The position numbers were made by a program, and so were the translations under genes. A stretch of DNA of 64,000 nt from assembly GCA_964354545.1 (NCBI GenBank), contig CAYHAE010000001.1:65190-129189 (forward strand), written 5' to 3'. The notes beneath the pieces are model-generated. The model was not told where the DNA came from. It saw only the letters and a list, made by a program, of their open reading frames with translations, and made no database searches. Source of the stretch: an uncultured Planctomycetia bacterium. GTDB taxonomy: Bacteria > Omnitrophota > Gorgyraeia > 2-01-FULL-45-10 > JAHFGN01. Positions 1,671 through 21,162 of this stretch are shown one piece after another; the stretch's first letter is position 1, and every line of letters starts with the position of its first letter.

Positions 1671-1868
1671 ATGCCGGAAGAGAACGTCTTCACGGTCCAG
1701 GAGTTGGCTCGCTACCTCAAGATGAAACCGGTAACTATCTATAAACACGCCAAAGAGGGCAAGTTACCTGGTTTCAAGGTTGGAGCCAATTGGAGGTTCA
1801 AGAAGTCTACAATAGACAATTGGATCTCTGGACAGGAAGAAAAAGAGAATCAAAAGAGCAGTATATAA
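1671..1868 (+). CDS. small excisionase/AlpA-type HTH DNA-binding protein, copy 2
   Basis: 65 aa. The N-terminal 45 aa are almost identical to the copy at 760-948. Confidence 0.6.
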   Translation: MPEENVFTVQELARYLKMKPVTIYKHAKEGKLPGFKVGANWRFKKSTIDNWISGQEEKENQKSSI

Positions 1869-1977: not shown

Positions 1978-3228
1978 ATGAATAAAAGAGTTGTAATTAC
2001 AGGACTGGGGGTACTTGCCTCGAACGGCATCGGCAAGGATGAGTTCTGGAAGTCCCTCAAGGAAGGACGCTCAGGCATCAAGCCTGTGACCCTCTTCGAC
2101 ACAGGGAATCTGCGGACCAAACTCGCAGGCGAGATATCCGACTTCCAGCCAGAGAAAATTTTAGGTCCGAAAGGCCTGCGGACTTTGGACAGGACGACGA
2201 AGCTCGTACTGTGTGCGTCTCACTTGGCGCTCGATGATGCAGGGATAAAATATCCTTTGAGCGAGGAGGAAACAGACTTTTTTGGTGTGTCATTGGGTTC
2301 CACAATGGGTTCTGTCGCGTCCATCAGCGAATTCGATAAAGAGGCATTACGCCATGGGCCCCGAGCCGTGAACCCCGCGCTTTTCCCCAATACCGTGATA
2401 AATTCGCCCGCCAGTCACATCTCGATAATGTTCAACATACAAGGTTTCAACTCCACGATCGCGACAGGGTTCTGCTCAAGCCTGGACGCGATATACTACG
2501 CGATGAATATGCTTAATCTATATGAATACAAAGTAGTGCTGACAGGAGGGGTGGAAGAATTGTGCGAGCATACATATAAAGGTTTTTACAAAATCGGCCA
2601 TCTTGCGGGTTCACGGCCCGGCAAAGAAGAGATCAATAGCCCTTTCGACAGACGGCGAAATGGCATCGTCTTCGGCGAAGGCGCGTGCATAGTCATTCTG
2701 GAAGAACTTGAACATGCCCTGAGTCGGAACGCGAAGATCTATGCGGAAGTACTGGGCTACGGCACGTCATTTGACCCAAAGAGCCGGAACATCTACAGCC
2801 CAAAGGCAGAAGGCGCTACGGAAGCGATAAGGTCGTGTCTTGAGGATGCCGGGGTCGATGGCAAGGATATCGATTATATAAGCGCGAGCGGGAATTCCAC
2901 GCTTGATTGCGATGTAATGGAAACGCGTGCGGTCAAGAATGTCTTTGGTGAACGAGCAAAGAAGATTCCGATAAGTTCATTGAAATCCATGGCGGGGGAG
3001 TCCTTCTCCGCTTCAGGGGCACTGAACCTTGCCGGTTGCCTCGGGATTTTAGAGGAAAATTTTATACCGCCTACGATATGTTACGCAGAGCCCGACAGGC
3101 GATGCGATTTAGACTATGTGCCGAATGAGACACGGGAAGCAAAGGTCGATAAGATCCTGATCGACGCCTTTAGCCCCACCGGCTCAAACTCGACGCTCGC
3201 GGTAGGGAGATATGTTGCTCAAAGATAA
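1978..3228 (+). CDS. beta-ketoacyl synthase-like protein; active-site Cys present but both catalytic His replaced (CLF-like or priming partner)
   Basis: Thiolase-fold KAS family throughout. The TGFCSS Cys box is present. The FabF His303 position reads SASGNST and the His340 position reads SMAGESF. Confidence 0.8.
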   Translation: MNKRVVITGLGVLASNGIGKDEFWKSLKEGRSGIKPVTLFDTGNLRTKLAGEISDFQPEKILGPKGLRTLDRTTKLVLCASHLALDDAGIKYPLSEEETDFFGVSLGSTMGSVASISEFDKEALRHGPRAVNPALFPNTVINSPASHISIMFNIQGFNSTIATGFCSSLDAIYYAMNMLNLYEYKVVLTGGVEELCEHTYKGFYKIGHLAGSRPGKEEINSPFDRRRNGIVFGEGACIVILEELEHALSRNAKIYAEVLGYGTSFDPKSRNIYSPKAEGATEAIRSCLEDAGVDGKDIDYISASGNSTLDCDVMETRAVKNVFGERAKKIPISSLKSMAGESFSASGALNLAGCLGILEENFIPPTICYAEPDRRCDLDYVPNETREAKVDKILIDAFSPTGSNSTLAVGRYVAQR

Positions 3229-3955
3229 GGTTGCAATAGTAACCGGAGGATCGCGCGGCATAGGCAGGGCCATCGTATCGGAATTCGCGAGCCAGGGAGC
3301 AAACGTCGCGTTTACGTTTCTTAAAAGCGAAGACAAAGCCCTCGAATTGAAAAAAGAGATCGAGGGAAAAGGCGGTAAGGTCCTCGTTTTTAGGAATGAC
3401 ATAAAAGATTACGGCGCAACTCGAATTATGGTAGAGGGCGTAAAGAGTCAATTCGGCAGACTGGATATCATCGTAAATAATGCCGGTATATTGCGTGATA
3501 AGGCGCTTATTCTCATGGAAGAAGTGGACTGGGAAGACGTGCTGTCTACCAATCTCTCTGGCGCATTTAACCTTATCAAGGCAGCGATCGTGACATTCAT
3601 GAAGCAAAGAAGCGGCAACATCATCAATGTAACGTCAGTAGCCGGCATAAAGGGTATGGCACGGCAAGTCAATTACTCAGCGAGCAAGGCCGGCATGATA
3701 GGTCTTACAAAGTCGTTAGCAAAGGAGGTTGGTAGCTACAATATCAGGGTGAATGCGATAGCGCCCGGGTATATAGATACTGATATGATTAAAGATTTCA
3801 AAGAAGAATATAAAAAAGACTTATTGAAACGCGTTCCATTGAACCGTTTTGGGAAGGCAGAAGAAGTTGCAAAGGTGGCAACGTTTCTTGCCTCAGACGA
3901 ATCGCAATACATAACGGGTCAGGTGATAACTATTGACGGCGGTTTAGCGATGTAG
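3212..3955 (+). CDS. fabG: 3-oxoacyl-ACP reductase, SDR family
   Basis: TGGSRGIGRAI Rossmann motif, NNAG motif and YSASKAG catalytic Tyr/Lys motif. It overlaps the upstream KS. Confidence 0.85.
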   Translation: MLLKDKVAIVTGGSRGIGRAIVSEFASQGANVAFTFLKSEDKALELKKEIEGKGGKVLVFRNDIKDYGATRIMVEGVKSQFGRLDIIVNNAGILRDKALILMEEVDWEDVLSTNLSGAFNLIKAAIVTFMKQRSGNIINVTSVAGIKGMARQVNYSASKAGMIGLTKSLAKEVGSYNIRVNAIAPGYIDTDMIKDFKEEYKKDLLKRVPLNRFGKAEEVAKVATFLASDESQYITGQVITIDGGLAM

Positions 3956-3978
3956 CCTAACTGGCGAGGTTGAGGAAG

Positions 3979-4233
3979 ATGCCTAAACTAGATGCAAGGT
4001 CATTAGAGCAAGAATTGAGAGCGCTTGTTGCCGAGATAGTGGAGATTGAGCCGGAGAAGATAACACCGGAGGCAAAGTTCGTTGAAGATTTGGGGATGGA
4101 TTCCATGATGGCGCTTGAAATTTTGGCATCGATCGAAAAGAAATATAAATTGAAAATTCCCGATGAGAACCTTACGAAGATAACAAATTTAAACCAGGTC
4201 ATAAAATTGGCGAACGAATTCTTAACTAAATGA
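3979..4233 (+). CDS. acyl carrier protein
   Basis: DLGMDSMMALE phosphopantetheine-attachment motif. It is about 85 aa with an RBS gaggaag upstream. Confidence 0.8.
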   Translation: MPKLDARSLEQELRALVAEIVEIEPEKITPEAKFVEDLGMDSMMALEILASIEKKYKLKIPDENLTKITNLNQVIKLANEFLTK

Positions 4234-4249
4234 AACGAAGTAGGAAGCG

Positions 4250-5464
4250 ATGAACAGGCGTGTTGTGGTGACTGGTTTGGGTGTTGTGTCGTCGATAGGC
4301 ATTGGTAAAGATGAGTTCTGGAAGAACCTCATTGCCGGCAAGTCAGGGATAAGCGATATCACCACTTTCGACACATCAGAATACTCTACCCATAAAGGAG
4401 GCGAAGTTAAAAACTTTGACCCCAAAGAATTTATCCCAAAAAATAGAATAAACGATGTCGCAAGGGCTTCACAATTCGCCATCGCTGCAACAAAGATGGC
4501 GCTTGAAGATGCGGGAGTTGATTTGGAGGGAATTCGTAATAAAAAGGTTGGTATAGTAATGGGTACTACCATGGCGGATGTCCAGTCGTTGGAGCAAATA
4601 GATAAGCATTGGATAAGTAAAGGAGAAGATGATGTATGGCCTGTTAATATTAAGAAATATCCGGCAAACAACATTTCAGATCAGATTGGTTTCTATTTTA
4701 GCATACAAGGGTTAAATTCCACGATTCCGACTGCGTGCGCAGCCGGAAATTATTCTATTGGATTTGCATTTGATTTAATAAGAACGGGTAAATTAGATTT
4801 TGCGGTAGTTGGAGGTGCAGATCCAATTTCTCGAACAAATTTTGCAGGTTTTAATCGTCTCGTTGCTATGGCCCCAGACAGATGCCAACCATTCGATAAA
4901 AATAGAAAGGGTATGATGGTTGGAGAAGGGGCAGGTGTGTTAATATTGGAGGAACTGGAAATAGCAGAGAAGCGAAACACATCCATATATGCTGAAATTC
5001 TAGGGTATGGATTGAGTTGCGATGCGTATCATATGACTTCGCAGCGTCCCGATGGTATCATTAAAGTAATGGAGAAGGCGATAAAAAACTCAAGAGTCAA
5101 TAAGGGAGAGGTCGACTATATCAGCGCTCATGGGACTGGCACACCATCAAATGATAAAGCAGAATGTGAGGCAATCAAAACAGTGTTTGGTGTTTTAGTT
5201 AGGAGTATATCTATTAGCTCTATTAAATCAATGCTTGGCCATACCATGGGTGCAGCTAGCGCTATAGAGGCGCTTACCTGTTGCCTTGCAATAGAAAACG
5301 GCATTATTCCACCTACTATTAACTATGAAACGCAGGATCCTGAATGTGACATTGATTGCGTTCCAAATGTGGCAAAAAAGAAGACATTGAAAGTCGTTCT
5401 AAATAATTCATTTGCATTCGGTGAGAATAATGCATGTGTGGTGTTTAAAAAATATGAAAGATAA
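4250..5464 (+). CDS. beta-ketoacyl-ACP synthase with canonical Cys-His-His triad (KAS I/II-like)
   Basis: TACAAG Cys box, SAHGTGT and SMLGHTMG His motifs. The gene is AT-rich. Confidence 0.85.
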   Translation: MNRRVVVTGLGVVSSIGIGKDEFWKNLIAGKSGISDITTFDTSEYSTHKGGEVKNFDPKEFIPKNRINDVARASQFAIAATKMALEDAGVDLEGIRNKKVGIVMGTTMADVQSLEQIDKHWISKGEDDVWPVNIKKYPANNISDQIGFYFSIQGLNSTIPTACAAGNYSIGFAFDLIRTGKLDFAVVGGADPISRTNFAGFNRLVAMAPDRCQPFDKNRKGMMVGEGAGVLILEELEIAEKRNTSIYAEILGYGLSCDAYHMTSQRPDGIIKVMEKAIKNSRVNKGEVDYISAHGTGTPSNDKAECEAIKTVFGVLVRSISISSIKSMLGHTMGAASAIEALTCCLAIENGIIPPTINYETQDPECDIDCVPNVAKKKTLKVVLNNSFAFGENNACVVFKKYER

Positions 5465-6038
5465 TTTGTTAAAGCTTATAAGAAGTAGGCGCACTATACG
5501 AAAATATACAGATAAAGAAATTTCCAATAAACAAATTATGAAAATATTAGAAGCGGGAAGATGGAGCCCCTCGGTTCACAATGCACAACCTTGGCGTTTC
5601 ATTGTGATCAGAAAAGAGCCAGTTATTAAAAGGCTGGCTGGTATATTATTGAAGAAATCTCATCATCTATTCTCTGGGTTTGATATTATTGTCAAAAAGA
5701 CAGCAGAGGTAGTCTTAAGCGCTCCTATCGCTATAGTTATATATAATTCATGTGAGCTCTCAAAAAGGATGAGAAAATTCGGCGATCCCTACTTTTCAAT
5801 TACAGAGATATCGGAGTTGCAGAGCATTTCAGCTTCGATTGAGAATATGTTATTAATGGCGCATTCATTAGGTTTAGGGGCCGCCTGGTTAACATCGCCA
5901 CTTTTTTGCGCCGCAGAGATAAGATCTCTTTTTAATATAAATGGTTCATTTGTAGCACTTTTAACAATTGGATATTCTGGTCAATCTTGTGCAATTTCCG
6001 ATAGAAAATCTTTGAAAAGTTGCATAAAATTCTATTAA
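5454..6038 (+). CDS. nitroreductase-family flavoprotein
   Basis: RRTIRKY...SPSVHNAQPWRF signature. The start overlaps the KAS stop codon. Confidence 0.7.
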   Translation: MKDNLLKLIRSRRTIRKYTDKEISNKQIMKILEAGRWSPSVHNAQPWRFIVIRKEPVIKRLAGILLKKSHHLFSGFDIIVKKTAEVVLSAPIAIVIYNSCELSKRMRKFGDPYFSITEISELQSISASIENMLLMAHSLGLGAAWLTSPLFCAAEIRSLFNINGSFVALLTIGYSGQSCAISDRKSLKSCIKFY

Positions 6039-6039
6039 A

Positions 6040-7530
6040 ATGCAATTAAAACAGGAAAATAAATACGATGTAATTGTAATTGGCGCAGGTATTAGTGGCC
6101 TTATATGCGGCACTATTTTAGCCAAGAATGGCGTAAAAGTCCTTATCGTCGAAAAAAATAATAAAGTAGGTGGTTATTGTTGTTCTTTTATTAGAAATAG
6201 TTTTAAGTTTGATGCGGGTGTGCATTACTTAGGAAGCCTACGTCAAAAAGGCGGACAATTAAGAAAAATACTTGATGAAATAGAATTAACTAGCGACTTG
6301 GAATTAGTTGACACTGATATTTCTGACAAAATATTATTCCTTGATTTCGAAATAATTTTCGGGAAAAATCTCGACGCAGTTACGGATTCTTTCAAAAAGA
6401 ATTTTTCGAATGAAATTGATAGCATTCGGAAATTCATTATTTATATATCCAAAACAGATTTTTCACAACTTTATAGAGAGAATATTACTTTAACATTTAG
6501 GCAGCTCCTTGACAAATATTTTAAATCGGAGTATATAAAACAAATTTTTTCCACGCCTTTAGGCAATGCCGGGGCATCGTCGAATAAGATTGCAGCAATT
6601 AGCGCAATTATTTTATTTAGGGAATATATTTTTGATAGTGGATATTATCCTAAAGGCGGGATGCAAGCTTTTTCAGATAAAATATGTCAAAAGTTCAAAA
6701 CGTTCGGAGGAGAAATTTTATTAAATTCGGAGGTAACAAAAATTTTGCTAACTACTAATAATGAGGCAACGGCTATAATCATAGATGACGGTGAAAGAAT
6801 AGAAGCATCTTATATAGTTTCATGCATAGATTCTTTTCGTACCTTTTTTGATTTATTCTCGAAAAATAGAACGATAGACAAAATTAGAACTAAAATAAAG
6901 AAATTGGTTCCTTCATTTTCTGCTTTTGTCATTTATTTGGGTGTAAAAAACGTAACGCAGGGGTTAGATAGTGTTAAATGTAGCACATGGTTTTGTCCCG
7001 AGCCTAATATAGATGCATATTATGGCTCTGTCTTAAGCAATCACTTAGATTTTAAAAAAAGTTTTTTATTGATCTCTCGGCCAACTTTTTTTGATAAGTC
7101 TCTTGCTCCAAGCAATAGCGAAATCATATCAGTCTTTACTGCCGCACCATTTAAAGATATTGCGTTTTGGGAAAAGAATAGGAAAAAAATAGTCGAAAAC
7201 ATTCTATATAACGTCAAAAAAGTAATTCCTGGAATAACCAATAGCAATATACTTGTAAAAGAGTCAGCCACACCTTTAACATTTTATAAATTTACTTATA
7301 ATTATCGAGGTGCATTGTATGGCTGGGCACCTATCGTAGACCAAATCTCATCAAATATTATGCCCATGAAATCACCTGCTATAAAAAATATGTTATTTGC
7401 AGGTCACTGGACAACTCAGGGATATGCTCAGGGGGGAATACCTGTTGTTGCAATTTCGGGGAGAAATGTTGCTAAGAAGGTATTAAATACATTTTTTAAA
7501 ACGAAAACCAGTATCTTATCACATGATTAA
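6040..7530 (+). CDS. FAD-dependent oxidoreductase of the phytoene desaturase/amine oxidase (CrtI-like) family
   Basis: N-terminal DVIVIGAGISGL...VLIVEKNNKVGGYC dinucleotide-binding motif. About 500 aa. Confidence 0.7.
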   Translation: MQLKQENKYDVIVIGAGISGLICGTILAKNGVKVLIVEKNNKVGGYCCSFIRNSFKFDAGVHYLGSLRQKGGQLRKILDEIELTSDLELVDTDISDKILFLDFEIIFGKNLDAVTDSFKKNFSNEIDSIRKFIIYISKTDFSQLYRENITLTFRQLLDKYFKSEYIKQIFSTPLGNAGASSNKIAAISAIILFREYIFDSGYYPKGGMQAFSDKICQKFKTFGGEILLNSEVTKILLTTNNEATAIIIDDGERIEASYIVSCIDSFRTFFDLFSKNRTIDKIRTKIKKLVPSFSAFVIYLGVKNVTQGLDSVKCSTWFCPEPNIDAYYGSVLSNHLDFKKSFLLISRPTFFDKSLAPSNSEIISVFTAAPFKDIAFWEKNRKKIVENILYNVKKVIPGITNSNILVKESATPLTFYKFTYNYRGALYGWAPIVDQISSNIMPMKSPAIKNMLFAGHWTTQGYAQGGIPVVAISGRNVAKKVLNTFFKTKTSILSHD

Positions 7531-9208
7531 CAAGTTGCAAGAATGCGAAATAGTAAGCAGCCGTATAATGTATAAGAACAATTCTGATATGAATATTTTA
7601 GGATATATTGATTCTGGAGTAACTGGCTATGATGCGAAACCATTCATTATCATTCCTCCGGGATACGGAGAAACAAAAAAAGATCACATATCAACTGCTT
7701 ATTACTTGGTAAGCAATGGTTTTAATGTGCTTCGTTACGATAATACTAATCATATCGGAGAAAGCGATGGGGAAATGGTAGATTGTAATTTGTTATCAAT
7801 GGAAAAAGATTTGGATGCAAGCATTAATTTCATAACGAGCAATTTTGCTACTGACAAGGTTGGTGTCATAGCTTCTAGCCTTGCTAGTAGAGTTGCCTTT
7901 AAGGTTGCCTCCCGTAATAGCTTTATATCTTTCATTATAAGCTTAGTCGGTGTTACGAATTTGAGAAAATCAATTTATTATGTCTATAAAGAGAAGATGA
8001 TAGAAGGGTACATTAGAGGACGCAGATGGGGCATTACTGATATTTTAGGTTTTGAAGTCAGCGATAATTTTCTAAAAATAGCTGTAGAAAATAATTATGA
8101 TACGTTTATTAGTACACTGAATGACATTAAGCGTATAGAGATTCCAATTTTATATATAGTTGCAGAACATGATGCATGGACCGATATTAAAGATAGTTAT
8201 TTGGTATACAAAAAGACGAAAAATATTAATAAAGAATTGTTTTTTGTTTCTAACGCTTTACATCAAATACAAGAAAACCCAAAGCTTGCAAAACAGGTCA
8301 TTTTGAAAATAGTTAAAAATTGCATTAAATACATGCACAATTGCGCAATTTCAGATGAACAATGCATGGAGCCTGACATACATTTTATAGTACGGCAAAA
8401 TAGAATCGAGCAAACAAATTTAAAAAAAACATTGACGGTAACTAGAAACGACGAAAAAAAATTCTGGACTAAGTATATGTCAGATTACTTTATATTAATG
8501 AAATCCTATGAATATAAAAATTTTTTAAGATTAAACTATGAACTGTTAGGCGGGTTTATAGATGGAAATAATTTCTTAGACGCCGGATGCGGAAATGGGC
8601 ATTTTGGTGCTTGGTTAGCAACTAAATTATGCCAAATTGAAAAAATAAGTCGTCTTCACAATTATAATAAGATTTTGTATACGGGGATAGATTTTGTAGA
8701 CCCACCCCTTAAGGAAGCTTTGGATAAGCACGCAAAATTAATCGCGACTTTATCTAAAAAAGAAAATATTGATTTATTAAAAAAGATGAAATTTGTTTAT
8801 ATCGTAGCTACACTAGAAAATGAGTTACCGCTTGAGAATAATTTTTTTGATAAAATTTGTTGCAATCTTGTTATCTCCTATGTTAAAAAGCCAGTCAAAG
8901 TTATTCAAAATCTCGTAAAAAAAATGAAGGAAGGGGGAAAAATAACGGTAAGTTCTCTAAAGCCAAATAACGATCTTTCTCTCATATATCGTAAGGCGCT
9001 TGATCAATCTTTAACCAGTAAAGAAGTTTTTGAAGCTAGAAGGCTTTTAACGAATGCAGGGAAAATAAAATATAAGGAGAAAATAGGTCATTATACATTT
9101 TTCAATGAATTTGAGTTGCTTGAAGTTTTAAGAAAGGCAGGATGTAAAGAAATACATACTTTTAGAACATTTGGAGACCAAGCAAATATTGCTGTAGGAA
9201 CTAAATAG
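7523..9208 (+). CDS. fusion protein: LuxD-like acyltransferase (alpha/beta hydrolase) domain + class I SAM-dependent methyltransferase domain
   Basis: The N-terminal domain resembles the LuxD myristoyl-ACP acyltransferase family (NGFNVLRYDNTNHIGESDG ... VGVIASSLASRVAF). The C-terminal domain has the LDAGCGNGHFG methyltransferase motif I. Confidence 0.55.
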   Translation: MINKLQECEIVSSRIMYKNNSDMNILGYIDSGVTGYDAKPFIIIPPGYGETKKDHISTAYYLVSNGFNVLRYDNTNHIGESDGEMVDCNLLSMEKDLDASINFITSNFATDKVGVIASSLASRVAFKVASRNSFISFIISLVGVTNLRKSIYYVYKEKMIEGYIRGRRWGITDILGFEVSDNFLKIAVENNYDTFISTLNDIKRIEIPILYIVAEHDAWTDIKDSYLVYKKTKNINKELFFVSNALHQIQENPKLAKQVILKIVKNCIKYMHNCAISDEQCMEPDIHFIVRQNRIEQTNLKKTLTVTRNDEKKFWTKYMSDYFILMKSYEYKNFLRLNYELLGGFIDGNNFLDAGCGNGHFGAWLATKLCQIEKISRLHNYNKILYTGIDFVDPPLKEALDKHAKLIATLSKKENIDLLKKMKFVYIVATLENELPLENNFFDKICCNLVISYVKKPVKVIQNLVKKMKEGGKITVSSLKPNNDLSLIYRKALDQSLTSKEVFEARRLLTNAGKIKYKEKIGHYTFFNEFELLEVLRKAGCKEIHTFRTFGDQANIAVGTK

Positions 9209-9221
9209 AAAATTTAAGCCT

Positions 9222-11357
9222 ATGAACTATTTTGGAATTACAGGCCTCTTGAATGGAATAATAAGCACAATTTTGGGCCTATTTGTAATTACAAGAGATT
9301 TTCGTAATGTTAAATATATTGCCTATTCTCTAGCTTGTTTGAATGTTTCGATTTGGAGCTATAGTTATTTTCTTTGGCAACTCTCTAACGATTATGTAAG
9401 CGCTCTTTTCTGGGCAAGAGCTTTAATGGCAGGTAGTGTTTATACTCCCATTTGTCATTTACATGCCTTAGTAGAAATATTAAATGAAAAAACTAGAAAA
9501 AGGCAAAAAATTATTATTTTAGGATATTTATTAGCCACACTTTTGTTGATTTCTGATTTCGGACCATTTTTAGTAAAGGGTGTTGAATCCAGAATGTTTT
9601 TTCCATTTTGGCCAATTCCTGGCATTGCGTTTCATTTTTTTATAGCCGTATGGGTTTATTACGTTGTATATAGCATTTATATTCTGTATAAACATAGTTT
9701 TAAAATTCAGGTCGCAGATGCAAATAAGATAAAATTTATCTTTATCATAACACTTTTTGTTTGGATTGGTGCCGCAACTAATCTTACATTATGGTATAAC
9801 ATAAACATTCCACCCTGGGGAAACCCGGCCATATCTATTTATTTAATATTGATCGCTTATGCTATATTACGATATCGGTGGATGGACATCGAAGTCGTCA
9901 TCAAGAAGACCCTTGTCTTTGCGGGGTTGTTGGCGGCGGTGTTTGCCATATTAATCCTGCCGACTCTGATTATTCAGGAATATCTTCTGAGAAGTGCTAG
10001 GTTTAGCGGAAGGGCACTGGGTCTTACCGTAAGCGGTATTATCATCATATTCACCATGAGGAAGATCGAAAATTTTCTTATAAATGTAACAGACAAATAC
10101 CTCTTTCAGAAGAAATACGACTACAAAGAGCTGCTCAAGACATTCACCACGGATGTTCTCACGGTCATGAACCTGGACAGGCTCGTGAACCTCACCGTGG
10201 ATAAGCTCGTCGACATCGTAAAGCTCAACTCCTGTGCAGTATTGCTCCTCGATGAGGATAGCCGGCAGTTCACCGTGGTCGCCTCAAAGCATATAAAAGA
10301 CCCCTCGGTGACATTGGTTAAGCCCAATGGCATCATCGCGTTTTTAGAGACTACCCACGGATACCTCTTGAAAAGCGAGCTCGCTCAAAAGAAGGTATTC
10401 ATCCCGGAGCCGGTCCAGGAGGTAATAGATAAGCTTAACGCAGAACTTATCATACCCATGGTGTTACATGATAAGGTTATGGGGATATTATCGCTCGGCA
10501 AGAAGAAGTCCGATGAGGGCTACACCCAAGATGACTGGGATATACTTATGCCGCTTTCCAGGACGCTCGCCATAGCGATCTCTAACGCAAAACTCTTCGA
10601 GGAACTCGGAAAGACCCAGGCGGAGGCGGCACAGAGGGAGAAGATGGCGGTCATCGGGACATTGTCGGCTGGCATAAACCATGAGATTTGTAATCCTCTT
10701 GGCATCGCGCGCGGGCAGTGCGAGGCCTTCCTGTTGAACGTGCGCGATGGCCTGTTCAAAGATAAAAGCCCCGATGAGCTATTAACCAAGGCCAAGGAGA
10801 TAATGCAGAAGGTAATAAAAGAGACCGACCGGGCCGTTTCCATCACCAAGAAGCTTTCGAGTTTCGCAAAGCCGTCTAGGGGCGAGGCGGAGTATATCGT
10901 CATAGATAAAGAAGTGGACGAGGTCCTGGCTCTGGTTGGCTACGAACTGAAATTGGAGAAGATCGAGATCGAGAAGCAAGTAGGAAAAGGTTTACCCGAC
11001 CTTTTCGTCGATAGGAAACAGCTCCAGGAGATCCTTTTCAACCTTATCCGCAATGCCGGCCAGGCGATAGGCGAAAAAGGGAAGATCACGGTCGCGGCCC
11101 ATGAGTTGAAAGGAAAGATAAGCATCGATATCCAGGATACGGGGTCGGGGATCCCTGAGGACAAGATAAAGGAGCTCTTCAATCCATTCTTCACGACCAA
11201 GGAACCGGGCAAAGGCACAGGTCTGGGGTTGTTCATCGTTCGTCAGGTCGTTGAGAAGAACGGCGGACGCATCTATCTCAAACAGACGAAAGTCGGAGAA
11301 GGAACGACATTTACGCTTGAATTTCCTGTTGCGGCAGCGAAGGAAGTTCAGGTTTAA
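9222..11357 (+). CDS. sensor histidine kinase (polytopic N-terminal membrane domain, GAF, HisKA, HATPase_c), paralog 1
   Basis: Multiple TM helices are followed by the [11 protein letters not shown] motif. The H-box is [12 protein letters not shown]-boxes DTGSGI and GTGLGL are present. Confidence 0.8.
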
Positions 11358-11384
11358 GGGGACCGCGGAGAACAGAATTGTGAC

Positions 11385-11756
11385 ATGGAAAAACCACGGA
11401 TAGTTGCAATAGACGATGAAGCCGAATTCGTCGACATGTTGAAGAACTATTTTGCGCCAAGAGGGTATGACATCGAGGTGGCGATCCGCGGGGCAAAGGG
11501 CATCGAGATCGTAAAGGAGAAGAAGCCGAACGTCGTGTTGATGGACCTGAAGATGCCTGGGATCGATGGCGATGAGGTGCTGACGCTCCTCAAATCGATG
11601 GAGCCGGCTCCCAAGGTGATATTCGTGACAGCATATGACGACGGCGGCAAGACGAAGGCGCGCCTCTTGAAGATGGGCGCATACGCGTATTTCGACAAGC
11701 CATTGTCGAGCCTGAAGGATTTGGAAGAGGCGATTAATCAGGCAGCTCAGAAATAA
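11385..11756 (+). CDS. single-domain response regulator (CheY-like receiver)
   Basis: Motifs DDE, VLMDLKMPGIDG and the downstream Lys. Confidence 0.8.
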   Translation: MEKPRIVAIDDEAEFVDMLKNYFAPRGYDIEVAIRGAKGIEIVKEKKPNVVLMDLKMPGIDGDEVLTLLKSMEPAPKVIFVTAYDDGGKTKARLLKMGAYAYFDKPLSSLKDLEEAINQAAQK

Positions 11757-11765
11757 ACGCGTGCA

Positions 11766-11791
11766 GATGATCACCGATATCTGTGATCATC
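11766..11791. promoter_or_regulatory. near-perfect 26-bp palindrome GATGATCACcGATATCtGTGATCATC (24 of 26 positions symmetric)
   Basis: Read directly in the sequence. It lies between the two receiver genes. Confidence 0.5.
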
Positions 11792-11817
11792 TGTGTTCCA
11801 AAAAAACAGGAGTACCC

Positions 11818-12198
11818 ATGCGCAAAATACTCGTGGTCGATGACGAGATCGACGTATGCGATTTCGTGAAGACTTTTTTCGAAGAGAGAGGGTTTAGGGT
11901 TTTTACCGCGCTGAACGGCGCTGAAGCGGTCTCGATCGTTCAGAGAGACAAACCGGATGTGATACTGCTTGATATCAAGATGAAGGGCATGGACGGGCTC
12001 GCTACGCTGCACCAGATCAAGGAGGTTGACCGGGATTCGAAAGTCATCATGGTTACCGCGCTCGAGGACCAGGACAAGATGGAAGAGGCGTATAAATGCG
12101 GCGCGATCGATTACATCACAAAACCCCTCGTCCTGGATTATCTGGAATCGGCGGTGTTAAAGGCATTGGGACTGAGCAACAGCGCGACGATCCGTTAG
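11818..12198 (+). CDS. single-domain response regulator (CheY-like receiver)
   Basis: Motifs VVDDE, ILLDIKMKGMDG and TKP. Confidence 0.8.
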   Translation: MRKILVVDDEIDVCDFVKTFFEERGFRVFTALNGAEAVSIVQRDKPDVILLDIKMKGMDGLATLHQIKEVDRDSKVIMVTALEDQDKMEEAYKCGAIDYITKPLVLDYLESAVLKALGLSNSATIR

Positions 12199-12264
12199 GT
12201 GGGTGAAAAATTTGCTGCACACGAGATCGGGATGCCGTTCAAATCGTACCGACTGTTTTTTCTA

Positions 12265-12385
12265 TTTCAACGCAGATTCTCGCGGATTTCCTGCCCGACG
12301 GCAGGCGGGCACGCAGATACTCGCAGATATCTGCGTTAATCTGCGTTTGATTCGCGTCTATCTGCGTTAACGCATGGTTTTTTAA
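12265..12385. promoter_or_regulatory. cluster of at least six CGCAGAT/ATCTGCG half-sites, including the perfect palindromes CGCAGATATCTGCG and GCGTTAACGC
   Basis: Read directly in the 217-bp intergenic region upstream of the HD-GYP gene. Confidence 0.45.
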
Positions 12386-12415: not shown

Positions 12416-13840
12416 GTGACCTATAACAACCACAGAAAAGCGCCGAGCTGGTCCAAGCTCCAGAACTGGTTTTTACAGCTCAGCGCCGAGGGAGAGAACG
12501 GGAACGGCGCGGTTAAGAATAAAGGCGCAGATGCGTCTGCCCGGGATACCTCTCACGAAAAATTCGCCCCCAGGCTGGATTACCAGGTCTTCTTGGAAAA
12601 TGCTTCGAGGAGCATGATCCGTTTCAAGAAGCCCGAGCACCTCATAAAGATGATCTGCCGCGTCATCAGCGAGCAGCTTAAGGTTACCCACACGGCGATG
12701 CTGCTGTTTAAAGAGTCGAAGAACGCGTACATCCTGATCGATTCAAGGGGCGAGGGCGGGCTGAAGATCCCGGTCGGATATATCCGGCTGCCGTTAGACA
12801 GCCCCCTGATCCAGATATTCAATCAACAACAGAACTTTCTCGTATCGGGCACAGGGACACTGAACTATGACGACATCATCATCTGCCTCAAGAATAGAGA
12901 TATACTCGACAAAGAGCCGGAATTGTACAACGAGCTTTTAGCCCTAAAGAAGCAGATGGACCTGCTGAAGGCGAACGTGTGCGTTCCGTGCTATTTTAAA
13001 CAGGATCTCCTTGGGATCATGATCCTGGGCTACAAGATAAACGGACAGCGTTTCAGAAGAGATGAGCTCGGTTTCTTCGTCACTCTGGCGAACGATGCTG
13101 CGATGGCGATATCGAATGCGCAGCTCATCGAAAGCCAGCTGGAGAGGATCGACGAGATAAAAGAGCTCTATAATCGCGAGCACAGGATATTCATTCACAC
13201 CGCGATCGCGCTTGCCGCGGCCATCGATGCGAGAGACCCGTATACCCACGGCCATACTGCGAGGGTAACGAACTACTGCCTTGCCATCGCGAAAGAGCTG
13301 GAGGGAGTTCCGGAAGAGGGCGGATACAAGAATTTCAAGGAGACCCTGCACCTATCGGCGCTTTTGCACGATGTCGGGAAGATCGGCATACCTGACCACA
13401 TATTGAATAAGACAGGCATGCTCACACCCGAAGAGTATACGGAGGTGAAGAAGCATCCTCTTATAGGCGCGATGATAATAAATCCTATCAAGGAATTGAA
13501 CGAGATCGCGCGGGAAGTGCGCCACCACCAGGAGGCCTTCGACGGTTCCGGCTATCCCGATGGGCTCAAAGAGAGCGAGATACCCTTTATCGCGAGGATC
13601 ATCGCAGTCGCCGACGCGTTCGATGCGATCACCACCGATAGGCCTTACAGGAAGAAGAAAAGCCCTGAGGAGGCAATTAAAGAACTTAAGAAATATTCGG
13701 GAACGCAGTTCGACCCTGTTGTCGTTTCAGCCCTCATCCTCGCCTACGAAAAAGGAAACCTCCTGCCCAACCACAAGAATAGGAACGGTAAGAACGGAAG
13801 TAACGGTATCAAATCTCCCTACCCTGCAAATCCTTTTTAA
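12416..13840 (+). CDS. HD-GYP domain c-di-GMP phosphodiesterase with N-terminal GAF-like sensor
   Basis: HD motif LHDVGKIGIP and GYP motif FDGSGYPDGL. GTG start with an AGGAG RBS. Confidence 0.8.
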   Translation: MTYNNHRKAPSWSKLQNWFLQLSAEGENGNGAVKNKGADASARDTSHEKFAPRLDYQVFLENASRSMIRFKKPEHLIKMICRVISEQLKVTHTAMLLFKESKNAYILIDSRGEGGLKIPVGYIRLPLDSPLIQIFNQQQNFLVSGTGTLNYDDIIICLKNRDILDKEPELYNELLALKKQMDLLKANVCVPCYFKQDLLGIMILGYKINGQRFRRDELGFFVTLANDAAMAISNAQLIESQLERIDEIKELYNREHRIFIHTAIALAAAIDARDPYTHGHTARVTNYCLAIAKELEGVPEEGGYKNFKETLHLSALLHDVGKIGIPDHILNKTGMLTPEEYTEVKKHPLIGAMIINPIKELNEIAREVRHHQEAFDGSGYPDGLKESEIPFIARIIAVADAFDAITTDRPYRKKKSPEEAIKELKKYSGTQFDPVVVSALILAYEKGNLLPNHKNRNGKNGSNGIKSPYPANPF

Positions 13841-15550: not shown

Positions 15551-15560
15551 GGGATGATCA

Positions 15561-16832: not shown

Positions 16833-18905
16833 ATGAATATTTTTACCATTTCTTCAGCTTTAATTTTTGTAACATCTTTAACTTCCGTAGCATTCCTATT
16901 ATTTAAAGGTAAAGAAAAACTAAAATGGCTATGGCTTCTATTTTCTATCTCCGTTGGAAATTGGGGACTTGCGGGCTATAACATATCAACTGCGCATTCA
17001 AAAGATATTGCCTTCGTATGGTGGAAAATCGCATATATTAGTGTAATTTTTGCTCCCGCGATCTATACGCATTTTGTTTTCACTTTTCTAAATAGTACGA
17101 AAAAATCGCTTCTCATATTGTTAGACATCGCAGCCTTTTCTTTTTTTGGTTTTAATCTATTATTTCCCAAGTTGTTTATTGGCGATCTGCGCCTTGTTTC
17201 TAGACAATTTTGGTGGCCCGATTGGCTAAGTACTTGCAACATCGTGTTTTTAATTTTTTTTGTTGCTTTTTATTGTTTCGCGCTCAATTATAGCATTTTA
17301 TTAATGATAAAACAGTTTTCCACCTCAACAGGTAGAAAGCGAAATCAGGCAAGATATTTTTTAATTGCAGCGATTTTTGGATGGGGCGGCGTTATGCCGC
17401 TTTTTTTGAATGTATTTTCGCATATTGACATTTATCCTTATAGTAATTTTTTGACATCAATTTACCCACTCATTGTCACCTACGCCATCATCCGCCATCG
17501 GCTGATGGACATCGAAGTCATCATAAAGAAGACCCTCATATTTGCGGGGTTATTCTCGGCGGCTTATGCGGTCTTCGCTTCTTTTGCCCTCTTGGGGCAG
17601 CTTGTCTTCGAGCGGTTCGTGACAGCCAACAGATGGGTCGCAATGCTCCCGAGCGTGGTAGTTGTCATCGCCATGTTCCGTCCTCTCGAGAAACTCCTGG
17701 TTGCTGTTACTGACAGGTACCTCTTCCAGAAGCGGTACGATGCCAAAGAGCTTCTCAAGATCTTCACCGAGGAGGTCCTTTTAGTCCTTGATATAGAGAA
17801 ACTTGCCGCCCTCACCATGAAAAAGCTCAACGAGACGATGAAGCTAACCACCTGCGCGCTCCTCCTCAAGGACGACGCGGCAGGAGACTTCGTATGCGCC
17901 TCGCCTCCTCCGGCAAACAAGGTGAGCTTATCCCGCGCAAGCGGCCTCGCCGTATCGCTGGAGAGATCGTCCTCTTTCATCTTGCGTACACATAGTGCGA
18001 GGATACCGGATACTGTAGCGAGCGACATGACACATCTCCGCGCAGAGCTCGCCATCCCCCTTCTCCTTCGCGGAAATCTCATCGGCATCCTCGCCCTCGG
18101 CAGGAAGATGTCAGATGAGGACTATGGCCAGGACGACTTGGACATACTTCTTCCTCTCGCGCAGACTCTCGCCATTGCCATCTCGAACGCGAAACTCTTC
18201 GACGAGCTCTCGAAGACCCAGGCAGAGGCAGCGCAGAAGGAGAAGATGGCGATGGTCGGAACCCTCGCCGCAGGCATGGCCCACGAGATAAGGAACCCCA
18301 TCACCACCATTAAGATATTCTCAGAATTCCTCAAGGAGAAGAAGGACGACCCCTCCTTCATCGAGAAGTTCGAGCGCCTCGTTCCAAGGGAGGTGGAGAA
18401 GATAAACCACATGATCACCCACCTCCTCGAGTTCTCAAGGCCCGCAGATTCCGCAGCAATGGAAGAAGTAGACCTCCATGAAGCCCTCAAGGACACGCTC
18501 GAGGTCCTCGGCCACGAGATGGTCTTACATGACATCGTCCTTAAAGAGGAGATAAGCGCTCTGCCTCCAGTATGGGGCAACCGGAAGCATCTCGAGGAGG
18601 TCCTCTTCAACCTCCTCCAGAACGCCATCCATGCCATAGGGAGGCGAGGTACCATCACCGTCACTGCGAAGGAGAGGGCAGGCTCAGTCGAGCTTGCCAT
18701 CCGCGACACCGGCTGCGGCATCCCCCAAAACGTCCTCCCCCACATATTCGAGCCCTTCTTCACCACCAAGATAGACACAAAAGGAGTAGGCCTTGGGCTC
18801 TATGTAGTCAAACAGCTCATGGTGAGGATGGACGGCTCTGTATCAGTCGAGAGTGAAGTAGGGAAGGGGACGACGTTCAGGCTGGTGTTCGCAAGGGCCA
18901 CATAA
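16833..18905 (+). CDS. sensor histidine kinase paralog 2 (7TM, GAF, HisKA, HATPase_c)
   Basis: Same architecture as 9222-11357, with the motifs LMDIEVIIKKT and GMAHEIRNP. Confidence 0.8.
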   Translation: MNIFTISSALIFVTSLTSVAFLLFKGKEKLKWLWLLFSISVGNWGLAGYNISTAHSKDIAFVWWKIAYISVIFAPAIYTHFVFTFLNSTKKSLLILLDIAAFSFFGFNLLFPKLFIGDLRLVSRQFWWPDWLSTCNIVFLIFFVAFYCFALNYSILLMIKQFSTSTGRKRNQARYFLIAAIFGWGGVMPLFLNVFSHIDIYPYSNFLTSIYPLIVTYAIIRHRLMDIEVIIKKTLIFAGLFSAAYAVFASFALLGQLVFERFVTANRWVAMLPSVVVVIAMFRPLEKLLVAVTDRYLFQKRYDAKELLKIFTEEVLLVLDIEKLAALTMKKLNETMKLTTCALLLKDDAAGDFVCASPPPANKVSLSRASGLAVSLERSSSFILRTHSARIPDTVASDMTHLRAELAIPLLLRGNLIGILALGRKMSDEDYGQDDLDILLPLAQTLAIAISNAKLFDELSKTQAEAAQKEKMAMVGTLAAGMAHEIRNPITTIKIFSEFLKEKKDDPSFIEKFERLVPREVEKINHMITHLLEFSRPADSAAMEEVDLHEALKDTLEVLGHEMVLHDIVLKEEISALPPVWGNRKHLEEVLFNLLQNAIHAIGRRGTITVTAKERAGSVELAIRDTGCGIPQNVLPHIFEPFFTTKIDTKGVGLGLYVVKQLMVRMDGSVSVESEVGKGTTFRLVFARAT
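18120..18905. repeat. about 0.8-kb segment near-identical to 20377-21162 (HK catalytic half)
   Basis: The encoded C-terminal roughly 260 aa of HK2 and HK3 are nearly identical. Minus-strand ORFs 18122-18778 and 20379-21035 translate almost identically. Confidence 0.8.
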
Positions 18906-19080: not shown

Positions 19081-21162
19081 ATGACCCCGATAGATTATTT
19101 TTATAAAGGGTTGCCATTAGCAGTAGGCACTTTCGCGTTGACACTAGGCGTTATTGCAATAAAGTATAGTGCAAAACGTTTATTGAGTCGTTTGTTAGCG
19201 CTTATTTGTCTTGGGGGAGTGTTATGGTTATATCCAGCCTTTATCATGTACATATTTCCAAAACAACCCTTGGTTGTGATATGGTCTTCGAAAGTCGTTT
19301 ATATTGGAGTAACGTTTATCGTAGTTTTCTATGCACATTTTACCTCTAAATTCTTGGGCTTAAAAAATAGGCTTTTTTTGATTATAGTCTATAGTCTCGG
19401 GATTATCTTTATTTTGATGTCAGTATTTACTAATAACATTATAGATGGATTCTACATATATTTTTGGGGAGCGTACCCCAAAGCCGGATCTCTATTTTCG
19501 TTCTATTGGTTTTATGCGCTTAGTTGTTTTGCCTATTGTTTGGTACGCCTTTATCAGGCTAGCTATGGTGTTCTTACTTCCACATATAGTAGTACTGAAC
19601 GGAATAGGATTAAGCATGTTTTTTGGGCGTATCTTCTGGGGAATTTCGGTGCATTTGATTTCATTCCAAGCTACGGTTTTGAATCTTATCCATTTGGTTG
19701 CTTCAATATCGCCATATTTATATCAGTTTTAGCATATGCGATTATCCGCCACCAGCTTCTTGACATCGAAGTCATCATCAAAAAGACCCTTGTCTTCGCA
19801 GGGCTCTTTGCCGCAGTGTACATAGTCTTCGCCTCGTTCGCGCTCATCGGGCAGGTCTTCTTTGAACGGTTCATTACTGCTAATAGGTGGATCTCGACGA
19901 TCCCGAGCGTCATCGTCGTCACCTTCATCTTCCGCCCCCTCGAGAAGCTCCTCATCACCGCGAGCGACAGGTTCCTCTTTCAGAAGAAGTACGACTACAA
20001 GGAGCTCCTCAGGACGTTCACGACAGAAGTCCTCACGGTGCTCGACACCGCGGAGCTCGCCTCGCTCACCGTAAAGAAGCTCTGCGACATCATAAAGCTC
20101 GCCTCGTGCGCGATGCTCCTCAAAGACGAGGCGCAGGGCGAATGTAAGGTCGTATCCTCGCAAGGACTTGCCACAGGGTCGATCGCGCTTGCGAAAGAGA
20201 GCGAGCTCTGCGAAGTATTAGAGAAGACTCATTCCTATGTCATGGCAGCGGGCGATACAGTAAGCCCTGCGCTGCAAGAGGAGATGCGCGTCTTGGGCGC
20301 AGAGCTCATCATACCGCTTATCCTCCACACTAAGCTCATCGGCGTCTTATCGCTTGGGAAAAAGAAATCAGACGAACCCTATACCCAGGACGACCTCGAC
20401 ATCCTTCTGCCTCTCTCGCGGCCCCTCGCCATTGCCATCTCGAACGCGAAACTCTTCGACGAGCTCTCGAAGACGCAGGCAGAGGCGGCGCAGAGGGAGA
20501 AGATGGCTGTCCTCGGCACCCTCGCCGCAGGCATGGCCCATGAGATAAGGAACCCCATCACCACAATCAAGATATTCTCAGAGTTCCTCAAAGAGAAGAA
20601 GGACGACCCCTCCTTCATCGAGAAGTTCGAGAGGCTTGTTCCTAAAGAGGTAGAGAAGATAAACCACATGATCACCCACCTCCTCGAGTTCTCAAGGCCC
20701 GCAGATTCCGCAGCAATGGAAGAAGTAGACCTCCATGAAGCCCTCAAGGACACGCTCGAGGTCCTCGGCCACGAGATGGTCTTACATGACATCGTCCTTA
20801 AAGAGGAGATAAGCGCTCTGCCTCCAGTATGGGGCAACCGGAAGCATCTCGAGGAGGTCCTCTTCAACCTCCTCCAGAACGCCATCCATGCCATAGGGAG
20901 GCGAGGTACCATCACCGTCACTGCGAAGGAGAGGGCAGGCTCAGTCGAGCTTGCCATCCGCGACACCGGCTGCGGCATCCCCCAAAACGTCCTCCCCCAC
21001 ATATTCGAGCCCTTCTTCACCACCAAGATAGACACAAAAGGAGTAGGCCTTGGGCTCTATGTAGTCAAACAGCTCATGGTGAGGATGGACGGCTCTGTAT
21101 CAGTCGAGAGTGAGGCAGGGAAGGGGACGACGTTCAGGCTGGTGTTTGTGACGGCCACATAA
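19081..21162 (+). CDS. sensor histidine kinase paralog 3 (7TM, GAF, HisKA, HATPase_c)
   Basis: Same architecture as HK2. The catalytic half is near-identical to HK2. Confidence 0.8.
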   Translation: MTPIDYFYKGLPLAVGTFALTLGVIAIKYSAKRLLSRLLALICLGGVLWLYPAFIMYIFPKQPLVVIWSSKVVYIGVTFIVVFYAHFTSKFLGLKNRLFLIIVYSLGIIFILMSVFTNNIIDGFYIYFWGAYPKAGSLFSFYWFYALSCFAYCLVRLYQASYGVLTSTYSSTERNRIKHVFWAYLLGNFGAFDFIPSYGFESYPFGCFNIAIFISVLAYAIIRHQLLDIEVIIKKTLVFAGLFAAVYIVFASFALIGQVFFERFITANRWISTIPSVIVVTFIFRPLEKLLITASDRFLFQKKYDYKELLRTFTTEVLTVLDTAELASLTVKKLCDIIKLASCAMLLKDEAQGECKVVSSQGLATGSIALAKESELCEVLEKTHSYVMAAGDTVSPALQEEMRVLGAELIIPLILHTKLIGVLSLGKKKSDEPYTQDDLDILLPLSRPLAIAISNAKLFDELSKTQAEAAQREKMAVLGTLAAGMAHEIRNPITTIKIFSEFLKEKKDDPSFIEKFERLVPKEVEKINHMITHLLEFSRPADSAAMEEVDLHEALKDTLEVLGHEMVLHDIVLKEEISALPPVWGNRKHLEEVLFNLLQNAIHAIGRRGTITVTAKERAGSVELAIRDTGCGIPQNVLPHIFEPFFTTKIDTKGVGLGLYVVKQLMVRMDGSVSVESEAGKGTTFRLVFVTAT
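20377..21162. repeat. second copy of the 0.8-kb duplicated HK catalytic segment
   Basis: See 18120-18905. Confidence 0.8.

Follow-up and report, generated by a model that had tools for sequence, protein, structure and literature searches.

A candidate lipid-signalling unit of an Omnitrophota bacterium combines relatives of the anammox Cluster I ketosynthases with a hypervariable enzyme-sensor cassette

Introduction

To our knowledge, the biosynthesis of ladderanes is a long-standing open problem, and the anaerobic ammonium-oxidizing (anammox) bacteria cannot be manipulated genetically. Their putative ladderane cluster, Cluster I (KustE3603-3608), comprises amxACP, amxFabZ, amxFabF2, amxFabFmut, a phytoene-dehydrogenase homolog and a B12 radical S-adenosylmethionine (SAM) enzyme, and a preprint of May 2026 regarded it as unique to ladderane producers (bioRxiv 10.64898/2026.05.19.726425). 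According to the same study, which reported the structure of the amxFabF2/amxFabFmut heterodimer (9S5H/9S5I), the two B. fulgida proteins assemble like a ketosynthase (KS) and a chain-length factor (CLF), malonyl-ACP (ACP, acyl carrier protein) is decarboxylated only by the heterodimer, C6-C8 probes are favoured over C16, and anammox genomes retain a separate canonical FabF beside this pair (bioRxiv 10.64898/2026.05.19.726425). In a metagenome study, antiSMASH made 'ladderane' calls in non-anammox phyla, including Omnitrophota, and these were left unexplained (10.1101/2022.12.20.521206). Here we describe a string of genes at nt 1978-13840 of a 64-kb stretch of DNA from an uncultured bacterium of the lineage Omnitrophota (assembly GCA_964354545.1, contig CAYHAE010000001.1, positions 65,190 to 129,189; hereafter, the window), which contains relatives of both Cluster I ketosynthases next to a sensor histidine kinase. 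On balance we lean towards the view that this string is one operon-like unit that makes and senses a small acyl signal, probably a methyl ester, and that it would occur in pherotype-like pairs of signal and receptor.

The diffusible signal factor (DSF)/Rpf system of Xanthomonas consists of the synthase RpfF, the sensor kinase RpfC and the HD-GYP phosphodiesterase RpfG. In agrBDC of Staphylococcus and comQXP of Bacillus, a hypervariable segment comprises the signal-making genes and the sensor part of the receptor, the transmitter part is conserved, and the signal and receptor form strain-specific pairs. In the Phc system of Ralstonia, PhcB, a methyltransferase, produces methyl 3-hydroxymyristate or methyl 3-hydroxypalmitate, and this signal is perceived by PhcS, a histidine kinase whose gene shares an operon with that of PhcB (PMC8578825, PMC11960443).

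Results

The string encodes a FabF homolog without a catalytic triad (KS-A), a ketoreductase (KR), an ACP, a second ketosynthase (KS-B), a nitroreductase-family protein, a CrtI/phytoene-dehydrogenase-family enzyme (PDH), a fusion of a LuxD-like domain with a SAM-dependent methyltransferase, and a seven-transmembrane (7TM) GAF histidine kinase, followed by two stand-alone receivers and a GAF-HD-GYP protein (Table 1). The first seven of these had been listed as a co-directional, tightly packed or overlapping group in an earlier, preliminary description of this DNA, and all seven open reading frames (ORFs) were verified, with their + strand and coordinates, and with families confirmed by Pfam and NCBIfam profile searches; neighbours within this group either overlap or lie no more than about 25 nt apart. 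The unit extends past nt 9208, with the same orientation and tight packing up to nt 13840, and the genes that make up this remainder (for the kinase, the two receivers and the GAF-HD-GYP protein) are kept together with the cluster in relatives. The preliminary description had also mentioned a block of three paralogous sensor kinases and receivers next door as a possible regulator. The three paralogous 7TM-GAF kinases are real, and the adjoining one is not an optional neighbour: among the partners of the cluster, and likewise among those of the fusion, it is the most constant. No convincing terminator was predicted inside the string, and a promoter/terminator scan yielded nothing above shuffled expectation except the hairpins located 3' of the HTH_17 genes.

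The limits of an AT-rich block within the string were located by the GC content of third codon positions (GC3), which falls from approx. 0.6 to approx. 0.3 near nt 4340-4385, within the KS-B gene, and climbs back to approx. 0.65 at nt 9820-9850, within the kinase gene at the junction of its sensor and transmitter parts (0.26-0.36 inside the block, 0.5-0.7 outside). The mosaic block proposed in the preliminary description thus exists, and with sharper edges than described there, but its inclusion of the sensor domain of the kinase points to a relationship of signal and receptor more than to a simple acquisition of biosynthetic genes.

Ten related loci were read (L083-L086, L089, L090 and L092-L095, with L084 and L085 being two records of the same contig), and comparison with these relatives outlined the same segment. 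The nitroreductase, the PDH, the fusion and residues 1 to approx. 205 of the kinase are 29-50% identical to their counterparts, while the HTH_17 protein encoded upstream, KS-A, the KR, the ACP, KS-B, the remainder of the kinase, the two receivers and the GAF-HD-GYP protein reach 54-88% (a range that omits the more distant L089 and L090). The identity of the kinase to those of L093, L086 and L092 leaps from 0.2-0.45 to 0.75-0.95 at aa 200-211, which is also where GC3 jumps and where the HisKA_7TM match ends. The pattern holds for all 21 pairs among seven loci, in which the PDH (28-45% identity) and the sensor domain (27-46%) contrast with the inactive KS (56-82%) and the kinase part (53-82%). 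In every locus, the lowest GC3 is found in the central genes.

A replacement of the same kind was detected in loci L009 (9674-12063) and L010 (9856-12223), whose flanking DNA is 90% identical on one side and 95% on the other. The intervening 2.4 kb shows no detectable DNA similarity over most of its length (there is a single 68% match of approx. 270 nt), and it corresponds exactly to the fusion gene plus the first approx. 183 codons of the kinase gene. At the protein level the fusions are 46% identical, the sensor domains 44% and the kinase parts 95%. The two loci are thus set apart by a second cassette swap, independent of that in the window. The two loci are labelled as belonging to different phyla (Binatia and Syntrophobacteraceae), and at least one of these labels is doubtful.

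We also considered whether the 7TM domain is inherently fast-evolving, and rejected this explanation. Within the same kinase family, the sensor domains of Nitrospira and Opitutae are conserved to the same degree as the kinase parts (e.g. 87-97% vs 86-97%), and a GAF-less 7TM kinase encoded in L083, L084 and L086 is evenly conserved along its length (60-67% in the N-terminal part vs 60-68% in the C-terminal part).

Since the variability of the segment stops at the conserved transmitter domain, and since the adjacency of the genes is conserved, the 7TM domain may be expected to recognize the product of the neighbouring enzymes. The cassette pattern and this adjacency together constitute the best available evidence for such recognition.

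Two more 7TM-GAF kinases, encoded without an adjoining synthase and therefore candidate orphan receptors (Table 1), differ from each other in the same manner, with an identity of 23% between the N-terminal domains and of 77% between the C-terminal parts. Both genes lie in a stretch of approx. 9 kb (13921-22704) that has no counterpart in the synteny of L093 and L094, and that looks like an insertion through which further receptors, together with defence genes, were brought in. The same stretch contains two unknown genes, a DUF5131 gene and an AbiEi/AbiEii pair. In the region 17365-21328 of L084, a second 7TM-GAF kinase is preceded by a Y1 transposase and a truncated Amino_oxidase fragment, and this region may be the remnant of another cassette.

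The N-terminal domain of the fusion protein matches LuxD (1THT) in a family profile search with an E value of 4e-42. Its residues Ser119, Asp217 and His247 align with Ser114, Asp211 and His241 of LuxD, which we take to be the catalytic triad of that enzyme, and they do not vary among 29 homologs; the DxGCGxG motif for SAM binding in the methyltransferase part is likewise invariant. The domain thus resembles the myristoyl-ACP thioesterase/acyltransferase LuxD of Vibrio in its fold and Ser-Asp-His triad. It differs in sequence (approx. 21% identity), in the attached methyltransferase, in its score with the NCBIfam LuxD equivalog (96.3 bits, cut-off 420) and in its surroundings, as no luxCABE genes are found near the fusion. 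We regard the domain as a true relative of LuxD and not as a LuxD ortholog, to judge from these comparisons.

The fusion family is small (161 clusters at E <= 1e-30 among 1.84 billion representatives). A scan with one genome per species returned 80 loci, in 79 of which BLAST found the full fusion ORF, and these belong to Omnitrophota, Planctomycetota (Planctomycetales), Verrucomicrobiota/Opitutae, Nitrospirota (Nitrospira), Elusimicrobiota, Binatia, Desulfobacterota-type metagenome-assembled genomes (MAGs) and others. In 74 of these 79 loci, the fusion gene is closely followed, on the same strand, by a gene for a full-length kinase homolog (aligned from residue 1 to approx. 703), whose start lies at about -60 to +670 bp relative to the fusion gene; in three of the five loci without a kinase, the contig leaves no room for one. 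On a Nitrospirales contig (L059 and L067), two copies of the fusion gene occur in one genome and a kinase follows only one of them. Most of the fusion loci have no dedicated KS genes. Because the fusion and the kinase are paired elsewhere without a KS, they represent an independent two-gene module that has been joined to the KS cluster in the window.

Many of the fusion homologs (P0028, P0035, P0107 and others) carry N-terminal extensions of 150-900 residues, and some of these contain PilZ (c-di-GMP-binding; c-di-GMP, cyclic di-GMP) or SRPBCC (lipid-binding) domains, which hints at control of the enzyme by c-di-GMP. A tblastn search of a plasmid collection with the fusion yielded only a LuxD gene and unrelated partial matches, and a literature search on Acyl_transf_2, HisKA_7TM and LuxD in combination with a methyltransferase and a kinase found nothing relevant.

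The two ketosynthases were aligned with FabF of Escherichia coli and with orthologs from nine related loci. In KS-A, the triad columns are occupied by Phe (in place of Cys), Ser (His) and Glu (His). The loss of both His residues had been noticed in the preliminary description, but the Cys that KS-A was said to keep sits one residue downstream of the catalytic column, where most orthologs have Ala, Ser or Thr. As all three columns are substituted, KS-A is a fully inactivated, CLF-like partner. KS-B, 35% identical to KS-A, possesses the Cys, both His residues and the conserved Lys (TAC, AHG and GH motifs).

For both proteins, the best match in the PDB is the anammox heterodimer. KS-B scores 518 bits with 9s5h_B, ahead of the ishigamide KS Iga11 (362) and FabF (approx. 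344), and KS-A scores 391 bits with 9s5h_C and approx. 270 with FabF. Direct comparison with a Brocadia-type Cluster I locus (L091) gave identities of 55% between KS-B and amxFabF2, 47% between KS-A and amxFabFmut and 44% between the window ACP and amxACP; in the PDB ranking of this ACP, ordinary ACPs score 61 bits vs 54-55 bits for 7auf and 9s5i_E. The CrtI-like enzyme of the window aligns over its full length with the PDH of L091 (32%, E 1e-79), and its match to CrtI 4DGK is far weaker (E 6e-23, half its length).

A KS phylogeny had been proposed as a check in the preliminary description. In a neighbour-joining tree, the window proteins group with amxFabF2 and amxFabFmut: the active-KS and inactive-KS clades each hold anammox and window-type (Omnitrophota) sequences, and canonical FabF, including that of an Omnitrophota MAG with a standard FabG-ACP-FabF set (L003), is placed outside both. 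The anammox homologs of KS-B form a group of their own (67-95% identical among themselves). Because both clades mix anammox and window-type sequences, the duplication of the KS and the inactivation of one copy are older than the split between these two groups of sequences. On these sequence criteria, the window pair is orthologous to amxFabF2/amxFabFmut.

The locus is thus like Cluster I in its intact FabF homolog and triad-less FabF homolog, in having its own ACP and in a CrtI-family enzyme encoded next to the KS genes. It differs in several respects. The B12 radical-SAM gene and FabZ are missing: Pfam-type scans of the window and the nine related loci gave no B12-binding or Radical_SAM matches, and no FabA/FabZ domain occurs anywhere in the 64-kb window. 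The window adds the FabG-type KR, the nitroreductase and the LuxD-methyltransferase fusion. It also has the string of 7TM-GAF kinase, two receivers and HD-GYP protein, and these signalling genes are all missing from the anammox locus L091. Relatives with names being Omnitrophota, the host does not belong to the anammox bacteria, and the central genes of the window cluster are hypervariable.

Membership of the aryl-polyene or aromatic type II polyketide synthase (PKS) groups was rejected on the basis of model scores and PDB ranking. The polyketide and aryl-polyene models of NCBIfam all remained below their cut-offs with the window KSs (PRK07103, 212 against 445; PRK09185, 266 against 407; AmcF, 220 against 325), the actinorhodin KS and Iga11 rank under 9s5h in the PDB searches, and no cyclase, aromatase or dehydratase gene is present with the KS pair. 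The aryl-polyene-type KS-alpha/KS-beta kinship suggested in the preliminary description has to be replaced by that with the anammox Cluster I pair, its ACP and its phytoene-dehydrogenase homolog. Its wider view, of a specialised fatty acid synthesis (FAS)/type II PKS-like cluster rather than a housekeeping one, is borne out by the intact KS with an inactive partner, the separate ACP and the separate KR.

Homologs of KS-B at 63-77% identity are very numerous, and those with names come nearly all from Candidatus Omnitrophota/Omnitrophica (one is from Candidatus Taylorbacteria). Judged by the names of these homologs, an Omnitrophota genome is the most likely source of the window. The related loci share a constant set consisting of the inactive KS, the KR (missing in L089), the ACP, the active KS, the PDH and the 7TM-GAF kinase. 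The two receivers and the GAF-HD-GYP protein follow downstream wherever the contig is long enough (L086, L090 and L092-L095), and the clusters of Omnitrophota that have no fusion retain the same string of kinase, receiver, receiver and GAF-HD-GYP protein. Optional components are the nitroreductase (present in L083, L084, L086, L094 and L095, and not in L089, L090, L092 and L093), a second PDH, an NAD_binding_4/epimerase-type protein, the GAF-less 7TM kinase and the LuxD-methyltransferase fusion itself.

In L094, a FabZ gene (9579-10004) is located between those of the ACP and the active KS, a gene order identical to that of anammox Cluster I. Its product is 47% identical to amxFabZ vs 30% to another FabZ-like gene product of the anammox locus. 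As FabZ joins the shared core, L094 holds five of the six Cluster I families.

Upstream of the cluster, genes for TsaD, MgtC, a bactofilin, LarC, a PDZ protein and a HAMP protein are common to L086, L092 and L093, and the window starts within the HAMP gene. The locus is chromosomal and not an island. No tRNA genes were found in the 64-kb window.

An HTH_17 gene precedes the cluster in all related loci except L089 and L090. In the window it is present in two copies (759-995 and 1670-1907), which form a 177-nt direct repeat (83% identical) with the same hairpin after each; the hairpin that follows the copy upstream of KS-A is located at 1865-1907. The copies flank a pair of genes (1025-1667) for proteins of 72 and 174 aa, resembling the DUF2204/DUF6036 nucleotidyltransferase toxin-antitoxin pair. 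In L093, a similar nucleotidyltransferase-type pair is inserted between the kinase and receiver genes.

Table 1. Coordinates of the unit and associated features in the window, with the basis of each assignment
Feature	Position (nt)	Strand	Basis and remarks
HTH_17 small DNA-binding protein	1671..1868	+	Pfam PF12728, E 6e-15
KS-A, triad-less FabF homolog, CLF-like	1978..3228	+	Alignment, PDB match, neighbour-joining tree
FabG-type 3-oxoacyl-ACP reductase (KR)	3212..3955	+	TIGR01830, 309.6 vs cut-off 297.75; Pfam adh_short_C2, KR
ACP, dedicated	3979..4233 (alternative start 3970)	+	PP-binding, E 1e-15; DS motif visible
KS-B, ketosynthase with intact triad	4250..5464	+	Alignment, PDB match, neighbour-joining tree
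Nitroreductase-family flavin mononucleotide (FMN) protein	5454..6038 (alternative start 5412)	+	PF00881, E 5e-30
CrtI/phytoene-dehydrogenase-family flavin adenine dinucleotide (FAD) oxidoreductase (PDH)	6040..7530	+	TIGR02734 crtI_fam, 149 bits, under its cut-off
LuxD(Acyl_transf_2)-SAM methyltransferase fusion	7523..9208	+	LuxD part approx. 7523-8420; class I methyltransferase part approx. 8420-9208
7TM-GAF histidine kinase	9222..11357	+	HisKA_7TM, GAF, HATPase_c; sensor approx. 9222-9840, GAF-kinase part approx. 9840-11357
Two stand-alone receivers	11385..11756 and 11761..12198	+	PF00072
GAF-HD-GYP protein	12416..13840	+	HD_5, E 1e-41, plus GAF; LLHDVGK and SGYPDG motifs in translation
AT-rich hypervariable cassette	4340..9840		GC3; most of KS-B, nitroreductase, PDH, LuxD-methyltransferase fusion, 7TM sensor domain of the kinase
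Two more 7TM-GAF kinases without adjoining synthase (candidate orphan receptors)	16833..18905 and 19081..21162	+	Pfam

Two other regions of the window were recorded. A giant ORF of 2847 aa occupies positions 24525-33068, and its sole Pfam match is Peptidase_C39, near residues 1668-1757. A second low-GC stretch (0.36-0.40 vs a window mean of 0.49) extends from approx. 32000 to 38000 and contains genes for PEGA/SHOCT, trypsin-like and TPR/BamE-like proteins.

Discussion

We propose the following model for the signal-receptor unit, in which the chemical steps, the binding of the ligand and the c-di-GMP output are inferred; the biosynthetic route is predicted from the families to which the proteins belong and from what was found in vitro for the anammox pair. 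KS-B and KS-A would form a KS/CLF-like heterodimer, as their anammox orthologs do in vitro. This heterodimer would be primed by decarboxylation of malonyl-ACP and would extend a probably short or medium chain on the ACP of the cluster, with the FabG-type KR reducing the 3-oxo group. Dehydration and enoyl reduction may rely on the enzymes of housekeeping FAS or be provided by the nitroreductase-family protein, which could be an ene-reductase or a dehydrogenase (its nearest structures in the PDB are uncharacterised nitroreductases). The CrtI-like FAD enzyme would then desaturate or isomerise the chain, the LuxD-like domain would lift it from the ACP through Ser119, and the fused methyltransferase would convert the freed acid into a membrane-crossing methyl ester. 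This product is predicted to bind the 7TM domain of the adjoining kinase, whose signal would pass through the two receivers to the GAF-HD-GYP enzyme (likely a c-di-GMP phosphodiesterase, the output of the cassette) and change the level of c-di-GMP. Exchange between strains of a single cassette, made up of the sensor domain and the enzymes for tailoring and release, would create strain-specific signal-receptor pairs, i.e. pherotypes. The general idea of the preliminary description, a specialised KS pair with a predicted unsaturated methyl-ester product and a mosaic origin, appears to have been right.

The likeness to the Phc system of Ralstonia is one of logic only: the methyltransferase gene of the window is located directly upstream of that of a membrane histidine kinase, with receivers downstream, and this Phc-type adjacency recurs in the 74 of 79 fusion loci mentioned above. 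Unlike in Phc, a LuxD-type thioesterase forms one protein with the methyltransferase, the kinase combines 7TM and GAF domains, the output is an HD-GYP protein and not PhcA, and the chain is supplied by a dedicated KS/ACP pathway. With the DSF/Rpf system of Xanthomonas, the unit would share a fatty-acid-derived signal (predicted here), a membrane kinase and an HD-GYP output, the HD and GYP motifs being present in the window; the differences are the lack of a crotonase-family RpfF, an HD-GYP protein with a GAF domain instead of a fused receiver, and another synthase chemistry. The closest parallel to the cassette itself is offered by agrBDC and comQXP, since here too the hypervariable segment comprises the sensor domain along with synthase genes and stops where the conserved kinase domain begins, and close relatives exchange alleles (as in the swap between L009 and L010). 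The signals of those systems are modified peptides, unlike the FAS-made lipid predicted for the window, and none of the proteins is homologous.

Several observations weigh against a signalling function. The anammox orthologs of the KS pair are thought to make membrane lipids and not signals, and the conserved chromosomal synteny of the cluster would fit a housekeeping lipid equally well. Neither a dehydratase nor an enoyl reductase is encoded in the window. The divergence of the PDH correlates only weakly with that of the sensor domain across pairs, and for this reason we claim no co-phylogeny of the two. Finally, relaxed constraint could partly account for the low GC3 and low identity of the cassette; we disfavour this explanation because the breakpoints are sharp and coincident.

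The main alternative is that the unit produces a specialised fatty acid for the membrane, a role also proposed for the anammox orthologs, in which case the 7TM kinase would monitor the state of the membrane in the manner of DesK, and the LuxD-methyltransferase would edit or recycle lipid. The orthology of the core with the putative ladderane Cluster I, the amxFabZ-like gene of L094 (47% identity) and the synteny conserved on the chromosomes of several Omnitrophota are all in line with such a role, and 7TM sensors can read membrane properties. However, the unit contains no gene for a glycerol-phosphate acyltransferase or other lipid-assembly protein. A LuxD-type thioesterase with a methyltransferase would yield a free, non-anchored product, as would the NAD_binding_4/epimerase-type protein of relatives, which may be a reductase. 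In addition, the hypervariability affects only the sensor domain and the enzymes for tailoring and release, swapped as a unit, which would be unexpected for a sensor of a bulk property. We consider a membrane lipid with a homeostatic sensor rather improbable, though it deserves to be weighed seriously.

An antagonistic or defensive lipid (a toxin or deterrent), with the kinase detecting the self or a competitor's compound for immunity and with diversification by an arms race, seems to us distinctly improbable. Such a function would agree with a hypervariable cassette exchanged between strains, with additional receptors whose sensor domains diverge, and with the toxin-antitoxin and defence-like genes nearby (AbiEii, DUF5131, nucleotidyltransferase pairs). 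Against this, the conserved unit contains no transporter, resistance or immunity gene, a c-di-GMP-type output is typical of lifestyle switching, and the module is conserved, not diversifying, in Nitrospira and Opitutae.

The fusion could also be imagined as a BioC plus BioH-like protein, whose methyltransferase would mask the carboxyl group of a malonyl or dicarboxyl thioester and whose hydrolase would later unmask it, resulting in a dicarboxylic or omega-functionalised acid. There is a weak match to the BioC model (31.6 bits), JGI annotators have labelled homologs 'pimeloyl-ACP methyl ester carboxylesterase', and the anammox KS heterodimer acts on malonyl-ACP; but the BioC score has to be set against a cut-off of 185, and most fusion loci have no dedicated KS. 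Because of the specific similarity to LuxD, masking of this type is unlikely, and we would credit it with very little probability.

That the locus is the primary FAS II locus of the organism, with the kinase genes as unrelated neighbours, is unlikely to the point of being hardly credible: although KS-B passes the broad PRK07314 FabF subfamily cut-off (431.9 vs 387), the KR passes the FabG equivalog cut-off and no further fab genes were seen in the 64-kb window, KS-A is catalytically dead by sequence (Phe, Ser and Glu at the triad), both KSs fall short of the fabF equivalog cut-off of 493.75 (KS-B 447, KS-A 363), KS-B clusters with amxFabF2 and not with FabF of E. coli or L003, the unit contains none of FabD, FabH, FabZ and FabI, a separate canonical FabF exists in anammox genomes besides the orthologous pair, and the linkage to the kinase is kept in every relative examined.

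Returning to the signal-receptor unit, the finding would join fatty-acid-derived signalling and pherotype cassettes on the core of the putative ladderane cluster. A more general proposal, which we put forward tentatively and would not yet favour, is that a widespread and hitherto unrecognised class of lipid signalling between cells exists in uncultured phyla, among them Omnitrophota, Nitrospira, Opitutae and some Planctomycetota, in which the fusion makes a methyl ester that acts through a 7TM-GAF kinase on c-di-GMP; in Omnitrophota the module would have captured a KS/CLF-ACP-desaturase pathway and given rise to lipid pherotypes, and the anammox cluster would be the same core with a B12 radical-SAM enzyme added. 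In that case the unsaturated precursor would be made by the shared core, and the radical-SAM enzyme would carry out the step specific to ladderanes.

For the ladderane problem, an apparently orthologous Cluster I core (active KS, dead KS, ACP and CrtI-like enzyme, with FabZ in L094) is now available from non-anammox Omnitrophota, minus the B12 radical-SAM gene. It provides a natural "minus radical-SAM" comparator, and points to the radical-SAM enzyme as the ladderane-specific step. For bacterial communication, the pair of fusion and 7TM kinase, and the exchange of cassettes at the sensor/transmitter junction, constitute testable evidence for lipid-based signalling in lineages with almost no known communication, including the nitrifier Nitrospira. 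If true, this would be a lipid counterpart of the peptide pherotype systems.

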